From: Planctomycetota bacterium
GTDB lineage: Bacteria; Planctomycetota; UBA8108; UBA1146
Direction of reading: 5' to 3'
Assembly: GCA_036338595.1 (NCBI GenBank)
Contig: JAYZBV010000071.1
Location: 1-64,000, forward strand
DNA length: 64,000 bases
Under the pieces are notes generated by a model, which was not told where the DNA came from, searched no databases, and saw only the letters and a list, made by a program, of their open reading frames with translations. Each line of letters starts with the position of its first letter. Within the stretch, counting starts at the first letter, position 1. The translations under genes were made by a program, and so were the position numbers. Shown in pieces: positions 4,026 through 33,663 of the stretch.

Positions 4026-4710
4026 ACGCCCAACTCCTGCGTCATCCCCGGTAACGACCTCAAAGGCAGGCCGTTCCACGGGGGGAAATGTGGATGTGGA
4101 GCAAGATGATGAAGACCGCCGTCTCGTGCGCAGGCACCTCTCAGGAGATGTCGGTGGCTTCGAGGACCTCTATCGACGTCACAGGGAACGCATCTTTGCG
4201 GTCCTGGTCCGCATGCTCCGCAACAGGGAGGATGCGCTCGAGGCGACCCAGGAGGTGTTCATCCGGATCCACCGGGGGCTCGATTCCTTCGATCCATCGG
4301 GGCGATTCCTCACCTGGGCATTTCGCATTGCGACCAATCACGCCATCGACAGGATTCGGCGGCGAAAGGTCCGAAAAGAGACTCCCATCATCGAGGAGTC
4401 CGTGGCCGCCGGATCTGACCTTCGCACCGGTCGCAGCAGCCAGCCCGTGGGTGCGGATGCGATGGAGCGTGAGGAGATCGCCAATGCGATACACGATGCG
4501 GTCGGAGAGCTGGGTGATGCCCATCGCATCGTATTCACGCTTCACTGCTACGAAAATCTCTCCTATGGCGAGATCGCTGCCGTACTGGGAATTCCGGTGG
4601 GAACTGTGATGTCTCGCCTCTACCACGCTCGGCGCAAGATCAGGAATGCACTTCCTGGCGACTGGGATCCCGGTGGACCGAGCCGCTCACGAGAAAGGGA
4701 ACAGGAATGA
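4018..4710 (+). CDS. ECF-family RNA polymerase sigma factor
   Basis: Region 2 (DALEATQEVF..TWAFRIATNHAIDRIRRR) and region 4 (LSYGEIAAVLGIPVGTVMSRLYHARRKIR). Start is GTG 4018 (overlaps the larC stop) or GTG 4090. Confidence 0.92.
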   Translation: MNERPTPASSPVTTSKAGRSTGGNVDVEQDDEDRRLVRRHLSGDVGGFEDLYRRHRERIFAVLVRMLRNREDALEATQEVFIRIHRGLDSFDPSGRFLTWAFRIATNHAIDRIRRRKVRKETPIIEESVAAGSDLRTGRSSQPVGADAMEREEIANAIHDAVGELGDAHRIVFTLHCYENLSYGEIAAVLGIPVGTVMSRLYHARRKIRNALPGDWDPGGPSRSREREQE

Positions 4711-7002: not shown

Positions 7003-8061
7003 ATGGCAGGACTCATCGAACGATACAGAAATCGCCTCCCGGTGACGGGAGATACGCCCGTGATCAGTCTCGAGGAGGGCTCGACACCTCTGATCCCTGC
7101 ACCGGCATTGAGCGCTCTGCTGGGGGAAGATCGCCAGGTCTTTCTCAAATTCGAGGGGCTCAATCCGACCGGCTCCTTCAAGGACCGTGGCATGACGCTG
7201 GCGGTGTCGAAGGCGATGGAGGAAGGATGCCGCGGAGTCATCTGCGCATCGACAGGAAACACATCGGCGTCGGCTGCAGCGTACGCCGCCAGAGCTGGAG
7301 TCCCCTGCTGGGTGGTGCTCCCTGCGGGTAAAGTCGCTGCGGGAAAACTGGCGCAGGCGATTGTTCATGGCGCCATCGTCATCCCCATCGATGGCAACTT
7401 CGATATTGCCCTGCAACGGGTCATCGAGATCGCCGATGCAGAGGGCATCACGCTGGTGAACTCGATCAATCCATACCGGATAGAGGGCCAGAAAACGGTC
7501 GCATTCGAGATCATCGATGAACTGGGCAGCGCACCGGCGACGCATTTTCTGCCGGTCGGAAACGCAGGTAACATCACGGCAGCGTGGCGTGGCTACAGCG
7601 AGGAAAGAGAGACGGGCCGAATCCAGGTTCCTCCCCGGATGATCGGTTGTCAGGCTGCGGGGTCGGCACCCATCGTCAACGGCGCAGTGGTCGAGAACCC
7701 GGAGACGATCGCCACCGCCATCCGCATCGGCAACCCGGCCTCATGGCAGGGAGCTCTTGGAGCCATCGAGGAGTCCCATGGAGCCATCCTTGCGGTCGAG
7801 GACGAGCAGATCCTGGCCGCCTACCGACACCTCTCCAGCAAGGAGGGAGTCTTCTGCGAGCCGGCGAGCGCCGCCAGCGTTGCGGGCTTGCTGAAGCAGC
7901 ATGAGGCGGGAATCGAAATCGCTCCCCCTGGAGGCACCATCGTCTGCACCCTCACAGGCCATGGCTTGAAAGATCCTGAGCGCGCTGTCGATGGGACCGT
8001 GCTTCCAGAGCCGATCGGCTCGGACCTCGATGACCTGCGCCAGGCGATGGGGCTGTCATGA
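7003..8061 (+). CDS. thrC: Threonine synthase
   Basis: NPTGSFKDRG (PLP lysine), CASTGNTSAS, PVGNAGNI, LTGHGLKDP. Confidence 0.97.
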   Translation: MAGLIERYRNRLPVTGDTPVISLEEGSTPLIPAPALSALLGEDRQVFLKFEGLNPTGSFKDRGMTLAVSKAMEEGCRGVICASTGNTSASAAAYAARAGVPCWVVLPAGKVAAGKLAQAIVHGAIVIPIDGNFDIALQRVIEIADAEGITLVNSINPYRIEGQKTVAFEIIDELGSAPATHFLPVGNAGNITAAWRGYSEERETGRIQVPPRMIGCQAAGSAPIVNGAVVENPETIATAIRIGNPASWQGALGAIEESHGAILAVEDEQILAAYRHLSSKEGVFCEPASAASVAGLLKQHEAGIEIAPPGGTIVCTLTGHGLKDPERAVDGTVLPEPIGSDLDDLRQAMGLS

Positions 8062-26045: not shown

Positions 26046-29000
26046 CTAGTCTGATTTATCCCGGTCCGCTTCGAAGTCTTCCTTGCGGATTTCATGGCGT
26101 TTGAGAAGGTTTGATAGTTGAGGTCGATGGATCCCCAGAGCCTCCGCAGCTCGAGTGATGTTTCCACCACTTCTGAATAGTTCTGCAATGATGTAGCGCC
26201 GCTCCAGCGCTGCCTTCGCCTCCTTGAGGGTCAGCTCACCCGAGGTCAACCGTGCCACTTCCTGATCGAGGTCAGGCTTCTGGGAGGAACGAAAGAGATC
26301 GACTCGACCACTTGTGAGTTCCGTGATCTCGACCGAGCCGACAGAGTACCAGTGCGGCAATACACTGACGGGGACTTCTACCGGCAATCCGAATTCTTCA
26401 CGAAGGTCATGAAGGGCATGCTGAAGATCCCTGCTCTTCTTGCGAAGATCATCTTCCCCTGGCCCGATCATCACGCAAACCAGGTGATCGCCTCCAGTGT
26501 AATAGACGCCTGATATCGGCTGCAGGATTTGAAGTAACCGGTTCACAATGTTTTCGTCTTCACGTTCTCTGAGCAAGATATCAAAACCTGGCAGACTCAC
26601 TTCCAGAAAGCCCAGCGGCTCCTTTTCTCTGTGGTGGCGCGACAGGAAGTAATCGATGTCTGCATCAAAAGCAGCCAGCGACCCGATCTCGCTCTGCTGG
26701 TACTCGAGCATCTGCGCATTTTTGGACAGTGCTACCAGCTGACCCTGGGCCATCGAGAGTAATCTCTCGACCTCCTCAACATCCCGATCCTGGAACGGGT
26801 TCCCTGCTGTGGGACGTTCCAGCACCAGTGCTGCCGAGAGCATTCCCTGAGCCGAGAACGGGATCGCCAGCAGGCTCCTACCTCTCACCGAATCACCCTG
26901 CGTGTGAGTAGAGATCCATTCATCCCAGGTCTGGGACCCACTTCGCATCGGCATCGAGCGTTCGATGCACTCCTGGGCCAGAGCACCGAGCACCTGCGAA
27001 GGTGGCAGCCAGTCCTCGGCGAGTCCCATGTCTATGTCGGCGAGGCTTTGCCACCGTCGCCGCCGTCTTGCCGCGATGAAACCGCGAGGACTGGGGACCA
27101 ATCTCCGGCATTGCTCCAGCAAGCCTTCAAGGAACGAGCGAAGTTCATCTCGTTTTCCAAGTTCCGAGATGGCACCGGCAACGGCAGCAAGTCGATCCTG
27201 ATCGAGAGAGCCGCCGGAGCGTGTCCCTGTTTCAGGATCAGCGTCGGGGACAGAATACGGCCCCGACCCGGTCACAGCCGGCGGCGGGTAATCTGATTCG
27301 CGGCGAAATCGTTGAAGGTCTGCAAAGAAGTTCTTTCGCCTGCGATCATCCAGATACACGACTCGCATATCTTCTGGCAGTCGTGTAGAGATTCTCTCGA
27401 TGATGGCAGCAGCTCGATCGTAGTTGACCCTTGCGCCCTGAAAATCGTGGGATCCTTGCTCGACCCTGGCTATGGCATAATTGATCTGCCACTGGAGCGG
27501 CAGCAAGGAATCTGCGCTGATCATCTGGAGAGCTTTCTTGTAGTACTCGAGAGATTTTTGCTGACCGTCTTCATTACGCTGGCGGCTGATGGCCCCCTTG
27601 ACCAGCAACCCTCGGACGATCAGGGGTACCGACTGCAAGGACTCTGCGATGAGCAGTCCGCGGCTGACGAACTTCAGTGCCTCCTCGAAAGCTTCTCGTT
27701 CGGTGCCGAGCTGAGCGCGATCGAACAAGCTGGCGGCAGCGACCCGATCCAGCCCCTGCTTCTGTGCAAGATCGAAGGATTTCTTCAACTCTCGATCCGC
27801 GGACTTCCAGTCTCCCCGCAACAGCGCCAGATTGCCCTGAAGCCTGTGCCCCTCTGCCTGGTACCGTGGCAACTCAAATTCCTGGGTCAAGATGAGGATC
27901 TGGCGAGCCAGGTTCTCGACCTGCTTCCTCTCTCCGAGCGCGAACCAGGCCCAGCCCAGGTGCAGGAACGAGCGCACGATCCCCTCTGTATTTCCAAACT
28001 TCTCACTGTTGGAGATGCTGCGCTTGAAGAAACGGATCGCCCTCCCGTAGTCTCCGGAGTGGGCGTGCAGACTTCCGATGGAGTTCAGGGTAGGAGAAAT
28101 CTGATGGCTGTCTCCGATGCGCTCGCGAAGAGTCAAACAGCGGCGAAAATGCTCGAGGCTTCGCGAGAAATCGCCACTATTTCGATACACCTTGCCGAGC
28201 AATTCATAGGTGGCAGCCAGAGCCCTCACATCCTGCGAGCTGTCGACAACCTCCAGCGCCCTGAACAGGTAGCGCGCAGCTCTGAAGTGCTTGCCCCGAT
28301 CGTAATAGACCCTTCCGATGGTGCGCAGCACCGATCCCAGCGCCACCGGGTCCTGTGATCGTTCGACCCTTTCTAGCAGTGTCTGGTAACTGTTGAGTGC
28401 CGCTGCAGAGTCTCCACGTGCGAGATGCGTCTCTGCAAGCGTCTCCAGGATGCGGCTCGACAACTGGTCAGCTCCGGCTTGCTGTTCGAGCCCGGCCAGT
28501 TCCTTTTGCGCCCTCAGGCACAGGCTCATCGCCCTCTTGATGTCCCGGCGCTGAAGCCGGAGTTGCGCACGCAGTGAAGTCAACCGAGCGGGTGCCAACG
28601 GATCGACCTGTTCAAGATCGGTAGAACTGACCCTGTTCAGCGCTCTGATCCCCTTGAGCGGCTCCTGCATCAGCAGATAGATCTCACCGAGGAAAAGGCG
28701 TGCATCGATGCGATCGGCCGCATCGGTTGCCGGATCTTCGAGCAACATCTTGATGTGCAATTTTCCCGATTCTGGCTGGCCAGTCTCCACCTCGAGACGA
28801 GCCAGTTGCCCGAGGATCTCACTGCGCACCTCCGCATCTCCATCGGCTCCTACGAAGTCGAGCATTCTTCTCCCGATACGAATCGCAAGCGGCTCTGCGT
28901 AGGCTCCTGCGAAGTACCTCATCGCAATCAGCCCGTAAGGTATCGCCAGCATCGGCTCATCGCCGGCAGCGAGAAGTTCGTGCACCTCGAAGGCGCGCAC

Positions 29001-30383
29001 AGGGTCCTGGCTACGGGAATCCTCGGCCAGGGTCTGACCCAGTTCCTTCTGCAGATTCCTGGCAACCTCGGGACGGATCGATGATCGGATGCCTTGCATG
29101 TGGATTTCATGGCAGATGAGATACCGGATGGCACCGCGGACTTCATGGCGATCGACAAACCCGCGATCGATCAGCAACTCCAATGCCTCGGAGAGTCGCT
29201 CCTCGGATACCTGGCAGGATCGCACCAGCATCGCCGCCTGAATCGGCCTGCGTAACATTGCCAGGTGCTCCAGCACTCGACGCTCGAGCGGTGGCAACGA
29301 TGCAACCCTGCGGTCGACGAGGACCAGTGGAAGCTCTGCCCCTCTGGAACTGGCCAGCAATGCCTCGACACTCTCTGCCTCGAGCGGAGAGGCCACTCCA
29401 CCTTCCTGAAGTAACCGACACATCTCCAGCACCAGGAGTGGGTTTCCATCACAAGCCTCGGCCATCATCTCGGCGAGTCGAGCATCCGGTTCCCTGCCGA
29501 GTTGCTCGCAGACCAATCCACTGACTTCTTCCACCGAAAGGGCTGGCAGTTCCACGGTTCGGCAAAACGGCTGCCCGGACAGTGCCTCCAGCTCCTCCGG
29601 AGCCGCATCGCTGCAGTGGTCTCCGATCACCAGCAACCGACCTCGAGCGTGCGACGGGGGCGGCTGGATGCCCTCCTGATTCTCGACCAGGGAACTGGCA
29701 AATTCCCCCGATCGACCCTCTCGAGCACGGATCTGTTTCCAGTCTCGAGAGCCACTCTTCGAATCGTCGCTCTCCGGACCCTGGACCGTCTCTCTGGAGA
29801 GGGCTGAATTCCGTGCCAGGTATTCGATGAACTCGATCGTGCCCGGATCACTGCGGTGAAGATCATGGAGGACCAGCACCAATGTGCGCTCGCTGGCCAG
29901 TTCCCAGAGGATTCCCGTCAGCGCCTGATGAAACTGGATCCGTCCACTCCAACCCGACAGTGGCTCGCGCTGCTGGCCTCGCTCCACCTCCGACTGGAGT
30001 TCAGGGAAGACGCGAACCAGCACATGCGCATAGCGGCGCCACAGGCCACGTGTTTCGCCATGCTCGACGATGAGATCCTTGACCAGGCGAAGGATGGGCA
30101 GGAACGGGATTCCCTGACGCTCGTGGCAATGAACCCGACAACTGAGGATGGAGCCGACATCGTCCGGGGGGTCCGCCAGCACCTCTTCGATGAGGCGCGT
30201 CTTGCCGCCACCGCTGACGCCGCTGACGAGTGCCAGTGTGCACATCGCAGCACCATTTTGGTCGCCTGGATCTGGATCGCTGCCATGGTGAATCCAGGAG
30301 CGGAGGGCGTTCAAGGATCGCTGGCGCGGTGCCTGCTGAAGATCATCGTGACCCGTCTCGGCCACCGGAGTCTCTCCGTCCAT
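26046..30383 (-). CDS. STAND-type (AAA_16/MalT-like) ATPase - TPR - GAF - degenerate GGDEF-like - Fis-type HTH regulator
   Basis: Walker A GVSGGGKT (aa 55-62), Walker B LVLVLHDLH, GNPLLVLE motif, many TPRs, GAF (SLLAIPF..LVLER..PFQDRD), C-terminal ERRYIIAELFRSGGNITRAAEALGIHRPQLSNLLKRH; GAGGAG SD 7 nt upstream. Confidence 0.85.
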   Translation of the reverse strand: MDGETPVAETGHDDLQQAPRQRSLNALRSWIHHGSDPDPGDQNGAAMCTLALVSGVSGGGKTRLIEEVLADPPDDVGSILSCRVHCHERQGIPFLPILRLVKDLIVEHGETRGLWRRYAHVLVRVFPELQSEVERGQQREPLSGWSGRIQFHQALTGILWELASERTLVLVLHDLHRSDPGTIEFIEYLARNSALSRETVQGPESDDSKSGSRDWKQIRAREGRSGEFASSLVENQEGIQPPPSHARGRLLVIGDHCSDAAPEELEALSGQPFCRTVELPALSVEEVSGLVCEQLGREPDARLAEMMAEACDGNPLLVLEMCRLLQEGGVASPLEAESVEALLASSRGAELPLVLVDRRVASLPPLERRVLEHLAMLRRPIQAAMLVRSCQVSEERLSEALELLIDRGFVDRHEVRGAIRYLICHEIHMQGIRSSIRPEVARNLQKELGQTLAEDSRSQDPVRAFEVHELLAAGDEPMLAIPYGLIAMRYFAGAYAEPLAIRIGRRMLDFVGADGDAEVRSEILGQLARLEVETGQPESGKLHIKMLLEDPATDAADRIDARLFLGEIYLLMQEPLKGIRALNRVSSTDLEQVDPLAPARLTSLRAQLRLQRRDIKRAMSLCLRAQKELAGLEQQAGADQLSSRILETLAETHLARGDSAAALNSYQTLLERVERSQDPVALGSVLRTIGRVYYDRGKHFRAARYLFRALEVVDSSQDVRALAATYELLGKVYRNSGDFSRSLEHFRRCLTLRERIGDSHQISPTLNSIGSLHAHSGDYGRAIRFFKRSISNSEKFGNTEGIVRSFLHLGWAWFALGERKQVENLARQILILTQEFELPRYQAEGHRLQGNLALLRGDWKSADRELKKSFDLAQKQGLDRVAAASLFDRAQLGTEREAFEEALKFVSRGLLIAESLQSVPLIVRGLLVKGAISRQRNEDGQQKSLEYYKKALQMISADSLLPLQWQINYAIARVEQGSHDFQGARVNYDRAAAIIERISTRLPEDMRVVYLDDRRRKNFFADLQRFRRESDYPPPAVTGSGPYSVPDADPETGTRSGGSLDQDRLAAVAGAISELGKRDELRSFLEGLLEQCRRLVPSPRGFIAARRRRRWQSLADIDMGLAEDWLPPSQVLGALAQECIERSMPMRSGSQTWDEWISTHTQGDSVRGRSLLAIPFSAQGMLSAALVLERPTAGNPFQDRDVEEVERLLSMAQGQLVALSKNAQMLEYQQSEIGSLAAFDADIDYFLSRHHREKEPLGFLEVSLPGFDILLREREDENIVNRLLQILQPISGVYYTGGDHLVCVMIGPGEDDLRKKSRDLQHALHDLREEFGLPVEVPVSVLPHWYSVGSVEITELTSGRVDLFRSSQKPDLDQEVARLTSGELTLKEAKAALERRYIIAELFRSGGNITRAAEALGIHRPQLSNLLKRHEIRKEDFEADRDKSD

Positions 30384-30389
30384 CTCATC

Positions 30390-30610
30390 TCTCCTCGCCC
30401 CATGGCAGGGGTCGCCATCGCCCGAATGACCGTAATGATTCCAGACGGATAGGCTATCTCCGGCGGGCTCAGCCGTAAAGATTGTGGACGGTGAATTTCG
30501 TGACTTTGAGGCCTCTATATCTCCTCGCCGTCCCTACTCGGCGAGGAGAAGCTTGGGTCTGAATGTCACTAGGACTGGGTGAAACCTGCCCAGGAAGTGT
30601 GTAGGGACGG
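30390..30610 (-). promoter_or_regulatory. Candidate 5'-leader RNA switch (SD / anti-SD hairpin / competing strand)
   Basis: 11-bp hairpin 30520-30549; its arm 30540-30549 is also complementary to the SD region 30390-30399; 30601-30610 is complementary to 30528-30537. Confidence 0.45.
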
Positions 30611-31300
30611 ACAGGCCGATTTGTTCCAGTGGTTGTGTGCTGTGTCAGCGGCGTGCAGATCGATACGAGATGGGTGAGTCAAATAGGGGAGCGTGCCAGA
30701 TCCTGATCGGGAGAGGTGCCCACTGGCACGAGGGTACGACACCACGGCGAGCGCCACGGGCCGTTTGCCGACCCGGTAACTCGCTCTCTGCAGTGCTTCG
30801 CCAGGGCATCCTTGCGGACCGCCACACACCTGGCTCCCTCGCAACCTGCCCCTGTAAATACACGGACAGGCGCGAACACTTCCGGAGCAACGGCTCCCGA
30901 TCTGTGATCATTCTGCCTGGATCCCGAGCCGTCGATTTCCGATCCCATCCGGAAAATCGAGCGTCGGGCACCTGCTTCCCCACAACTGACCGGACTCCGC
31001 CGTTTCCCCCGTCCCGATCTGGCTGCACTGGCGGAGCCACCGGACTTCCCCCCGAATCTCGATCCAGACCGGATCGAGAAGTGACAGAAAACTCGACACG
31101 AATCGACAGATTTCGGTGGCATGATCTCGCCAGGCGAGTGAAGAGGTGAGCGGGCGAGCACACTCCCGGGAGTCGCAGCAATACCGGATCGACCTCGGCT
31201 CGTCGCTCTCCCTCGACCCAGGCGTGGCATCTCGTGCCCGGCACCCGGGTTTGGCAGGAATATGGGGGGACACCCGCATCAGGTCAAGTGGGCGATTGTC

Positions 31301-31339
31301 AAAAGAACCGGGGCCGACGGGTATGCCCATCGGCCCCGG
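31301..31339 (-). terminator. Intrinsic terminator of the Arg-rich protein gene
   Basis: Minus strand CCGGGGCCGATGGG-CATA-CCCGTCGGCCCCGG-TTCTTTT (14 bp, G-U only in this orientation), about 20 nt after the stop. Confidence 0.85.
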
Positions 31340-31358
31340 GGGGCAAGGGGGGGAAGGC

Positions 31359-31829
31359 TCAGTGGAAGGAAGCCGTTGTGAAGCTCCCGCATGCGGGCTT
31401 CTGCAAGATCCAGGCTCCTGCGACATGGACCCTGCGAGGTACTTTTCGCATGCGGCCAGGAACACGGATGCGCTCCCGAAACGCTCGTCTCACAGGTACT
31501 CCACATCTGAAGACAGTCCTGTAGCGGGTCACGGTCCGGAAACGGTCAGGACCACGCACCTTGCAGAACTGGATCCTCGTCGTTGCCGGTCTCCACACCT
31601 GGGTCATTCCACTAAAGAATTTCCTCACGCACCCACCGTTGCGGATGGAGTACTGGACTCCCGGAAGGACATCGTGCTGATGCGAGTGCAGTGTGCATGA
31701 AGATGATGCGACCTGCTGATTTCTGGGCAGGCATCGTTGCCTCAGCGACGAGCGAGGTTCGATCGTGGCGGCGGAGGCCACCATCGGAGAAGACACCAGA
31801 ACAAGAAGCACCAGGGCTCGGATCGACAT
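31359..31829 (-). CDS. Secreted Arg-rich protein with a predicted long beta-hairpin
   Basis: AAGGAG SD, signal peptide ..MVASA-A, own terminator; 24 Arg, 4 Lys, 4 acidic residues and 6 Cys in 156 aa. Confidence 0.72.
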   Translation of the reverse strand: MSIRALVLLVLVSSPMVASAATIEPRSSLRQRCLPRNQQVASSSCTLHSHQHDVLPGVQYSIRNGGCVRKFFSGMTQVWRPATTRIQFCKVRGPDRFRTVTRYRTVFRCGVPVRRAFRERIRVPGRMRKVPRRVHVAGAWILQKPACGSFTTASFH

Positions 31830-31911
31830 GACCGACTCCTTTCTCTTGAGTTTCAGGAAGCGTCGTTGCTTCCTATTGGCTCTCGAGAGGGATGACGATG
31901 GCGATCAGAGG

Positions 31912-33663
31912 TTATTCAATGGTTTTCATCGAATCGGGAGGAGCGGGCGGTCCCAGCAGCAGGTGGGATCGTCCTTCCTCAACAAATCGACCCGCCTCTC
32001 GCCACTCCCTGTGGGGCGAGGTCAAGCGTTGCGAGTCCGCTCTCCGGATCCACTCCTTGCCCCTGGACGGATCGCCCAGACGCGACCACAGCGATCCGAT
32101 GCGCAGTGCCAATGCTGCAGAGGAGAAGCGTGTCGTCGCTTCCTCGAGCACCCTGTGCGCCTCTCCATCGCGTCCCTCGCTGTGAGCGATCTCTGCGGAG
32201 AGCCAATCGATCCAGCCATCGAACGGGCGAATCCTACGCGACCGGGCGAGCGATGCGGATGCAGAGAGCACATCTCCACTGCGCAGAGAAGCGAGGGAGT
32301 GATGAAACCATGCATCTGCATCGGAGGGATCCTTCTGCGTGATCTTGTCGAAGGTCTCCGCCGCAGAAGTGAAACGAAACAGGTACATCTGGGCAGCTGC
32401 GATGCTCCACAGATCAAACCGATCGATCGGTTCCAGATCCAGACCCACATCGATCTCCAGCAGCCCCGCTGGATCCCCCTGTTCAATCGCTGCAATCCCC
32501 AGCACGATCCATGGGCCCGGGCGTGCTGAATCGACCTGAATGGCATAGCGAGCAGCGATGCGGGCTGATCGAGGATCCCCCGCCCGCAGCGCAACCCAGG
32601 CCAACTGCCTCTGGACTGCAGCATCCTGGCGCAGCGTCATCGCTCTTTCGCCATGGAGATCGAGAAGAGTCTGCCCGAGCGAGTGGACAGGGGCATCCTC
32701 GGCATGAACTGGCAATGGCCTCGCCAACATCGCGGATGAGAGATCCTGTATCAGATCCGCCGTAGCAGGCCCCGCTGCCGTGGATCTGCCGAGCCATCCA
32801 GCGATGATCAGCAGTCCGATCCCCCCCACAACAGGGACCCAACGACGGCGAGGAGCTCCAACCTCTCCGGTGCTGTTTCTACGCGCCCGAGGACGAGCTC
32901 CATCACGCACCGCATCGAGCATGCTTGCAAATCCACGCAAACTGGCAGGACGGGCCTCGCTGTCGAGAGAGAGAGAATCTTCGAGCAATCCGAGTAACCC
33001 GGGTAACTCTGAAATACTCTCGCCGACCGTTGAGCCATGAGATCTGGACAGCAATCGATCCGCGACCTCTGCAGCCGATCGTCCCGACCAGGGGGGACGG
33101 CCGATGGCACACTCATGAATCAACACCGCCAGCGCGTAAACGATCTGGCATTCACTGGCAGCGACAGGCTCCTTCGAGAGAAGGATCTCGGGAGCGATTC
33201 GACACGCCAACTCATCGAGTCGATCATCGACATCGAGCGCGAGCCGGTCGATCCTGAGCCGCAAGTGGCCATCTGATCCCAGCACTACTGATTCCGGAGG
33301 GAGTGCCTGAAGGGGAACACCCTCATCATTCAGAGTTGCCAGCATCCTTGCGAGATCCGCAAACTGACCGACGAGTGCTCTCAGGCCTCCCGACAGGATC
33401 ACCTTCCAGTTCCGTGATGGGGAGGATCTGGCTCTATCGATGCAATGATCAAGGGTGGTTCCGGAATAGCTCTCGCTCGTTCCGGACCGATGAGGATCGA
33501 TCAGCATTTGTCTCGGGAGTCGCATCTCTTCGGGGCTTCGCAGCAGCAGCGATTCGAGTATCAACTGCCGATGATCTCGATCGCATGCGCCAGCCTCTGC
33601 ATCCCCAGAGGTCGCTCGCCTCGAATCGAAGTCCTCCCGTGGCCGCTCGATCATGCCGCCCAT
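31912..33663 (-). CDS. Ser/Thr kinase-like pseudokinase - TM - TPR protein
   Basis: Kinase C-lobe landmarks (IAPEIL, VYALAVLIHECAIGRPPW, ARPAS) without HRD/DFG; TM WVPVVGGIGLLIIAGWL; C-terminal TPRs. Start uncertain. Confidence 0.7.
   Translation of the reverse strand: MGGMIERPREDFDSRRATSGDAEAGACDRDHRQLILESLLLRSPEEMRLPRQMLIDPHRSGTSESYSGTTLDHCIDRARSSPSRNWKVILSGGLRALVGQFADLARMLATLNDEGVPLQALPPESVVLGSDGHLRLRIDRLALDVDDRLDELACRIAPEILLSKEPVAASECQIVYALAVLIHECAIGRPPWSGRSAAEVADRLLSRSHGSTVGESISELPGLLGLLEDSLSLDSEARPASLRGFASMLDAVRDGARPRARRNSTGEVGAPRRRWVPVVGGIGLLIIAGWLGRSTAAGPATADLIQDLSSAMLARPLPVHAEDAPVHSLGQTLLDLHGERAMTLRQDAAVQRQLAWVALRAGDPRSARIAARYAIQVDSARPGPWIVLGIAAIEQGDPAGLLEIDVGLDLEPIDRFDLWSIAAAQMYLFRFTSAAETFDKITQKDPSDADAWFHHSLASLRSGDVLSASASLARSRRIRPFDGWIDWLSAEIAHSEGRDGEAHRVLEEATTRFSSAALALRIGSLWSRLGDPSRGKEWIRRADSQRLTSPHREWREAGRFVEEGRSHLLLGPPAPPDSMKTIE

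Follow-up and report, generated by a model that had tools for sequence, protein, structure and literature searches.

The bacterial RNAs that come closest to the element treated here belong to two kinds. RsaE and RoxS of the Firmicutes are terminator-ended small RNAs (sRNAs) whose C/U-rich seeds pair with purine-rich ribosome-binding regions, and the purine and lysine riboswitches have aptamers organised by kissing contacts between loops L2 and L3. The present element lies upstream of the gene for a STAND-type regulator in a 64,000-nt stretch of Planctomycetota DNA (the window), which lies on contig C71 of a 2.9-Mb metagenome-assembled genome, 88% complete; all strings, and the RNA itself, are read on the minus strand of the window. 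An initial annotation had described a hairpin, an upstream string (element A) and the Shine-Dalgarno sequence (SD) of the regulator gene as three interlocking parts of a translational switch. The comparison of related genomes suggests that the hairpin and element A are parts of one structured RNA of about 111 nt, likely a separate small RNA gene and not the leader of the regulator, a reading to which we give a probability of about 0.6.

By analogy, this RNA would work like a terminator-ended bacterial sRNA in which a structured body is combined with an exposed seed. It shares with RsaE and RoxS a size of about 100 nt, a single-copy chromosomal gene, a conserved unpaired pyrimidine- or C-rich stretch, and an end formed by a GC-rich hairpin and a U-run, here seen in 45 of 58 distinct copies. 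It differs from them in that the terminator loop is locked to the loop of an upstream hairpin by seven conserved pairs, that no promoter was found in front of it and its targets are candidates only, that it has no similarity in Rfam and that Hfq was not detected in the five genomes searched for it. With the purine and lysine riboswitches it has in common hairpins held together through their loops, a joining region that is highly conserved, a terminator hairpin and a location in front of a gene; however, the second kissing hairpin is here the terminator itself, there is no conserved competing antiterminator, the downstream gene is not constant and no Rfam riboswitch matches. The second hairpin has the GC-rich stem, the 8-nt loop and, in most members, the U-run of intrinsic terminators, but its loop is conserved and paired to a partner about 65 nt upstream, which an ordinary terminator does not need. 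Such a conserved lock between a terminator loop and an upstream hairpin loop is an unusual architecture. The parts of the RNA, in 5' to 3' order after the whole, are the following.

30511-30621, minus strand: whole conserved small RNA, 111 nt; covariance model R1 gives 124.6 bits, E 1.7e-33, and the 5' end is predicted by the model match.
30583-30617, minus strand: hairpin P1, with arms 30617-30609 and 30591-30583 and a 17-nt loop, from the RNAalifold consensus.
30601-30607, minus strand: UCCCUAC in the P1 loop, the core of element A and 5' strand of the loop-loop helix; pairs with 30537-30531 in 100% of cells.
30550-30582, minus strand: linker, predicted to be unpaired, with a universal core, UUCAGACCCAA, at 30563-30553, from the alignments.
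30520-30549, minus strand: hairpin P2, the hairpin of the initial annotation, with an 11-bp stem and loop AGUAGGGA; 99.4% of cells paired.
30537-30531, minus strand: GUAGGGA in the P2 loop, 3' strand of the loop-loop helix, pairing with the P1 loop.
30511-30519, minus strand: tail after P2, UAUAGAGGC, with 2 T in the 9 nt after the model's stem; a weak terminator in this genome.

The consensus fold obtained with RNAalifold from 17 sequences consists of the two hairpins P1 and P2. Because the P1 loop carries element A and P2 is the previously described hairpin, the pairing between element A and the hairpin loop becomes a loop-loop (kissing) helix, UCCCUAC:GUAGGGA. This helix was absent from the model, made of P1 and P2 only, that produced the alignment, and as a check on bias metagenome contigs were scanned with the linker alone, which gave 45 loci; 80 sequences were aligned, 58 of them distinct. 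The seven loop-loop pairs are formed in 100% of cells (57 distinct sequences), including all 45 linker-collected rows, with compensatory changes at three of the seven positions and a wobble at one; the variants are UGCCUAC:GUAGGCA, UGCUUAG:CUAGGCA, UCCCUGC:GCAGGGA and UCCCUAU:AUAGGGA. Among the 58 distinct sequences, eight of the nine P1 pairs change on both sides, with G-U pairs that fit this strand only, and the same is true of eight of the nine modelled P2 pairs as far as changes on both sides are concerned. Taken over the whole structure, pairing is found in 96.2% of cells, and both sides change in 19 of the 25 pairs. None of 500 shuffles reached any of the five pairing measures, and slid controls were 37-48% paired.

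The three strings of the initial annotation are exact in position and sequence: element A, CCGTCCCTAC, lies at 30610-30601, the hairpin TCTCCTCGCCG-AGTAGGGA-CGGCGAGGAGA at 30549-30520 (an 11-bp stem without mismatch and an 8-nt loop), and the SD, GGCGAGGAGA, at 30399-30390, seven bases 5' of the ATG at 30383. Element A had been proposed either to invade the loop of the hairpin or to form a pseudoknot. The second option is what the relatives bear out, with its seven pairs kept throughout. The first has no counterpart, since the 3-bp extension into the stem that the window allows (30537-30528 is the exact reverse complement of element A) is not conserved in the alignments; the helix reaches into the P2 stem in only a few genomes and is otherwise limited across the class to the seven loop bases. 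Being confined to the loops, it forms side by side with P2, without competing. Between the two hairpins, the linker is the most conserved unpaired part of the RNA; its core is universal apart from one genus, and in most members outside the window's family the linker contains UCCUCCUUUUUCCUCGUUUAUUUCAGACCCAAAC. Thermodynamic stability by itself is not distinctive for either the leader or the RNA: the folding energy of the 256-nt leader is unremarkable (z -1.66), and that of the 111-nt RNA has a z of -1.46, with 19 of 200 shuffles folding as well.

Among the Planctomycetota genomes searched, the RNA is, but for one marginal match, confined to one class of uncultured members of the phylum. The covariance model built from P1 and P2 only gives one strong match per genome in 28 of 28 genomes of the family, 34 of 34 of the order and 58 of 59 of the class, the sole class genome without a match being 85% complete. 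A second model, used on a phylum sample of 151 genomes, matched all seven class members and gave one marginal match (28.4 bits) in the 144 others. A pattern scan of bacteria and archaea, at one genome per species, found 49 loci, all in metagenome-assembled genomes, of which 42 are labelled Planctomycetota, Planctomycetes or Planctomycetia, three 'uncultured bacterium' and four with other phylum labels. Second, weak model matches in genus g7 (25-29 bits) were rejected as homologues because they consist of a generic GC-rich stem and U-run only, with P1 broken. Conservation of the linker exceeds that of the neighbouring proteins, the STAND proteins being 28-32% identical across the class.

Orthologs of the regulator are present in all 41 related genomes searched, and the upstream regions of 16 of them were compared. 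An alignment of nine genus members contains two separate conserved blocks upstream of the regulator. Block 1, of about 105 nt, begins a little upstream of element A and extends through the whole hairpin, is nearly invariant in the nine members, and is better conserved than the adjoining coding sequence. Block 2, downstream of the hairpin, is made up of TTTACG, a 17-nt spacer and TAGCCT, TATCCT or TACCCT, with two CCGT-N11-ACG motifs flanking it. The features on the regulator's side are the following.

30451-30479, minus strand: predicted sigma-70-type STAND promoter (TTTACG at 30479-30474, 17-nt spacer, TAGCCT at 30456-30451), found in 16 of 16 family orthologs.
30431-30491, minus strand: two operator-like CCGT-N11-ACG motifs (30491-30474 and 30448-30431) that bracket the predicted STAND promoter.
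30381-30399, minus strand: SD GGCGAGGAGA (30399-30390) and start codon ATG (30383-30381) of the STAND gene; the orthologs have a GGAGG-like SD and align from residue 1.
26046-30383, minus strand: gene for the 1445-aa STAND-type regulator, with Pfam AAA_16, TPR and HTH_8 domains.

The promoter-like TTTACG-N17-TAnnnT element lies 58-67 nt 5' of the ATG in all 16 orthologs, with a spacer of fixed length and variable sequence, and is also found at loci L074 and L078. As it stands between the hairpin and the SD, the STAND mRNA is predicted to start downstream of the hairpin, near 30445. Two CCGT-N11-ACG copies are present in 13 of the 16 orthologs, one in 1 and none in 2; one copy overlaps the -35 sequence and the other lies at about +1. 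Single copies are also found just upstream of the STAND open reading frame (ORF) at L070, L071 and L079, in distant genomes where a BrkB/YihY-family gene intervenes between the RNA and the regulator. Given that the motif keeps its place near the STAND ORF despite the intervening gene, the promoter and operator belong to STAND and not to the RNA. The pair resembles operator sites, perhaps for autoregulation through the HTH_8 domain. In the STAND 5' untranslated regions (UTRs) of L013, L019 and L020, 20-35 nt before the ATG, there is a further motif, GGTAGGGACC or GGTAGGGGAC, similar to the P2 loop and able by its sequence to pair with the P1 loop; it is missing from the window's genus, and could be due to chance or be a lineage-specific pairing site.

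These results bear directly on the switch, in which the 5' arm of the hairpin was to alternate between its own 3' arm and the SD. The window does hold GGCGAGGAGA four times against 0.64 expected, three of the four being the two hairpin arms and the SD, and the P2 3' arm and the SD are here identical over 10 bases, so that either could pair with the 5' arm. However, of 16 orthologous leaders only that of the window has the exact 10-nt identity; in the remaining 15 the shared stretch is 4-7 nt long and mostly GAGGAG, and in the closest relative, whose regulator protein is 91% identical, only 4 nt are common to the hairpin 3' arm and the SD. The two 10-nt matches that had been judged non-random thus part ways: that between element A and the loop, kept in all relatives with compensatory changes, exceeds chance, and the unconserved copy of the SD does not. 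The initial annotation also placed the hairpin and the SD on one mRNA, and named a transcription start downstream of about 30520, and a lack of conservation in relatives, as results that would contradict it; the unconserved SD pairing is one such result, and the start near 30445, predicted rather than mapped, would be the other. In 13 of 19 genus representatives, moreover, a whole BrkB/YihY gene separates the RNA from the regulator, and the pairing of element A into the stem is limited to a few genomes. Since the window copy has no U-run, some read-through transcripts could hold both hairpin and SD here, but a three-way SD, anti-SD and competing-strand switch on the STAND mRNA is, given all of this, highly improbable.

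P2 has a GC-rich stem of 9-11 bp and an 8-nt loop across the members, and at least 5 T occur in the first 9 nt after it in 45 of the 58 distinct copies. The GC-rich stem, short loop and U-run of an intrinsic terminator are therefore present in the RNA family as a whole, but not in the window copy (AUAUAGAGG), which is, with its closest relative, among the 13 copies without a U-run. Transcription would end at P2 in most species, and weakly in this genome, with the STAND regulator transcribed from its own predicted promoter at 30479-30451.

The gene neighbourhood was surveyed in 19 genus representatives outside the window's genus. An ECF sigma factor gene lies divergently upstream of the RNA in 11 of the 19, a BrkB/YihY-family gene lies 3' of it on the same strand in 13, and the STAND gene is found downstream within the fetched stretch in 13. 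Directly 5' of STAND, the RNA is found in four genera of the window's family (g1, g4, g5 and g7), and no BrkB/YihY homologue was found by tblastn in the window's genome (88% complete). The downstream gene is thus BrkB/YihY in 13 of 19, STAND in the window's family, and another or none at four loci: at L061 the first ORF downstream that reaches 150 aa runs in the opposite direction, the genes around the RNA differ at L076, and contig ends interrupt L075 and L077. The closest homologue in the window of the RNA-adjacent ECF sigma factor (40-44% identity) is encoded at 4105-4653 on the plus strand, 26 kb from the RNA.

Upstream of the conserved block there is a mildly AT-rich zone at 9-16 nt and frequently a CA just before the block. 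The stretch 30622-31307, about 690 nt from the terminator of the upstream gene to the RNA, holds no ORF conserved in relatives, and its sequence conservation reaches the closest relative only; the promoter of the RNA would be expected there, and none was found. Beyond it, a 156-aa ORF at 31359-31829 (minus strand) has a signal-peptide-like N-terminus and no Pfam match, is conserved in relatives, and is followed by a 14-bp hairpin and U-run at 31308-31339 (minus strand). Its substitutions are three-base-periodic (AGG/AGA to CGC arginine swaps), which marks it as a real gene. The conserved block 31248-31610 had been considered as a possible second RNA and was rejected, being a protein-coding gene.

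By locking the two loops together, the kissing helix would present the linker as the working surface of the RNA, and the exposed linker probably pairs with other RNAs; on the basis of sequence, then, the RNA is probably trans-acting and works through its linker. A search of five genomes for complements of the linker core returned its own gene and 21 two-mismatch sites, compared with 4 for the reversed control; 20 of the 21 were inspected, and only two had extended complementarity. In genus g16, a linker-complementary site lies in the 5' UTR of a gene for a conserved 271-aa HTH_17 protein, 20-50 nt before its start, with 20 perfect pairs, and is present in nine of the ten genomes of that genus. 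The g16 HTH_17 protein is an acidic membrane protein (loci L198/L201; G052:C30, about 7030-7090). In G039 (two copies) and G032, a complementary stretch immediately precedes a hairpin and U-run encoded on the same strand, and the G032 stretch comes after a stop codon; these terminator-proximal loci are L199 (G039:C112, about 390-450) and L243 (G032:C159, about 150610). All of these second loci are complementary to the linker over at least 17 nt (17-30 nt), and the predicted duplexes reach -57.3 and -59.7 kcal/mol, whereas the shuffles averaged about -33 and went no lower than -45.9 and -48.6. This complementarity suggests that the linker pairs with other RNAs, and the second loci could be targets, sponges or relics. 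A class-wide target in HTH_17 5' UTRs was rejected, the site being confined to g16; it was missing upstream of 18 HTH_17 orthologs from other genera, examined by eye and with a pattern scan. The only 13-mer complement with one mismatch in the window's genome, at C35:15535, is antisense to two ORFs and was likewise rejected as a target.

The class-wide structured small RNA is new and belongs to no Rfam family. Rfam 15 matches nothing on the RNA at E up to 10 in the window (29800-32200), nor at E up to 1 at six distant loci (42,670 bases), in agreement with the initial annotation, which had recognised no known aptamer. Literature searches, covering the titles and abstracts of the leading matches, returned no description of such an RNA, which is weak evidence that none has been published. 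SRP RNA was rejected as an identity, given that RF00169 matches elsewhere in five of five genomes (on contig C65 in G000). 6S RNA forms one long, irregular hairpin (about 180 nt) with a bubble at its centre; here there are two separate hairpins in about 110 nt, RF00013 matches nothing in five genomes, and this identity was also rejected. A CsrA/RsmA-sequestering RNA was rejected as well, as CsrA was not detected in five genomes and the single GGA loop is paired to the P1 loop, and the lack of conserved anti-SD:SD complementarity (1 of 16 orthologs) argues against an SD-sequestering switch. Of the marks of a transcriptional riboswitch, the conserved structure with covariation that an aptamer would have is present, with 19 of 25 pairs changing on both sides. 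Inspection of the alignments revealed no conserved alternative pairing by which the terminator would be excluded; in most members the P2 5' arm could be replaced by a segment of the linker, but a hairpin would still stand before the U-run. An Hfq-dependent sRNA was not accepted either, as no Hfq gene was found in five genomes. Terminators of Hfq-binding sRNAs carry seven or more T, according to a passage in PMC5558911. Many members of the present family have tails that reach this length, yet Hfq was not detected.

Several observations weigh against a separate, trans-acting RNA. No promoter of its own is visible beside it: before the RNA, no offset has a sigma-70-type TAnnnT in at least 4 of 30 sequences, and one locus of 11 has an ECF-type motif, as many as chance would give (shuffle mean 0.56). 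BrkB/YihY, STAND or both lie downstream of the RNA on its own strand in most genomes, an arrangement that fits a cis-acting leader too, and in the window the missing U-run makes read-through into the STAND promoter region possible. Only 3 of 26 genera have such complementary second loci, chance would by our estimate give about one 18-mer match with one mismatch in 59 genomes, and the sites in G052 and G039 are perhaps related copies and not evolved targets, because they share the same departure (GACUCA, where the sRNA has GACCCA). In the window's genome there is no linker-complementary site beyond chance, the longest non-self match being 14 nt; its non-self 11-mer matches to the linker number about 103, with about 75 expected. 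Finally, neither Hfq (PF17209) nor CsrA (PF02599) was detected in any of five genomes (G000, G012, G014, G036 and G046, one of them a single contig), and therefore no known chaperone is at hand.

An unlikely but substantial alternative is that the RNA is a cis-acting leader, a riboswitch-like attenuator in which the hairpins and linker form the sensor and P2 is a conditional terminator for BrkB/YihY and STAND. The position on the same strand directly 5' of BrkB/YihY in 13 of 19 representatives with STAND next, or directly 5' of STAND in the window's family, would be natural for such a leader, as would the want of a visible promoter, and an invariant 'unpaired' stretch of about 35 nt together with a pseudoknot is typical of aptamers. 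However, with the loop-loop helix contained within the loops, no conserved pairing competes with the terminator, and most terminators are strong, with their 9-11-bp stems and at least 5 T in 45 of 58 copies. The RNA is also kept in the window's family, where BrkB/YihY was not found (by tblastn, in the 88% complete genome) and STAND has a promoter-like element of its own before its SD in 16 of 16 orthologs, and at L061, where the nearest downstream ORF that reaches 150 aa has the opposite orientation, and L076, whose neighbours differ. The same observations on the U-run, the STAND promoter, the family without BrkB/YihY and L061 argue for a separate unit.

It is doubtful, too, that the RNA is a protein-binding or housekeeping RNA, whose rigid rod of P1, loop-loop helix and P2 would serve with the linker as a platform for a protein or the ribosome without pairing to mRNA. 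One strong copy in 58 of 59 class genomes, a linker more conserved than the neighbouring proteins (STAND 28-32% identity) and the lack of a convincing class-wide RNA target would suit such a role, as would the presence in most members of CCUCCUUU in the linker, which we take to match the 3' end of 16S rRNA. Against this, the window's genus does not retain the CCUCC part of the linker, CsrA and Hfq, as partner proteins, were not detected in any of five genomes, and the occurrence of SRP RNA elsewhere in five of five genomes means that this RNA is not SRP RNA. That the conserved block acts as DNA, as a palindromic operator or a repeat, has a negligible probability: the hairpins would also read as inverted repeats in DNA, and there are operator-like repeats nearby, but many G-U pairs fit one strand only (22 GU were counted at one pair of P1, for example, and 15 UG at one of P2), the stems stay paired while their sequence changes freely, the U-run is on one strand and each genome has one copy only. 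A separate small RNA gene remains the preferred reading.

For annotation, the outcome is that a false 'RNA switch' is removed from the leader of the regulator, and the results supply a covariance model, a predicted STAND promoter and operator, and candidate pairing partners in three genera. To our knowledge, hardly any regulatory RNAs are known from Planctomycetota, and we know of this class from metagenome-assembled genomes only; a terminator locked by a loop-loop helix is testable in vitro without culturing the organisms. It is a tentative thought, and an unlikely one, that this is an undescribed class-wide core RNA whose rigid kissing-loop fold makes a platform or binding pocket of the invariant linker (about 35 nt), and which would represent a new riboswitch class governing the conserved neighbourhood of ECF sigma, BrkB/YihY and STAND genes or the RNA subunit of a new ribonucleoprotein. 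A single-copy RNA that 58 of 59 class genomes share, and that is better conserved than the proteins encoded beside it, likely does something central in these bacteria.

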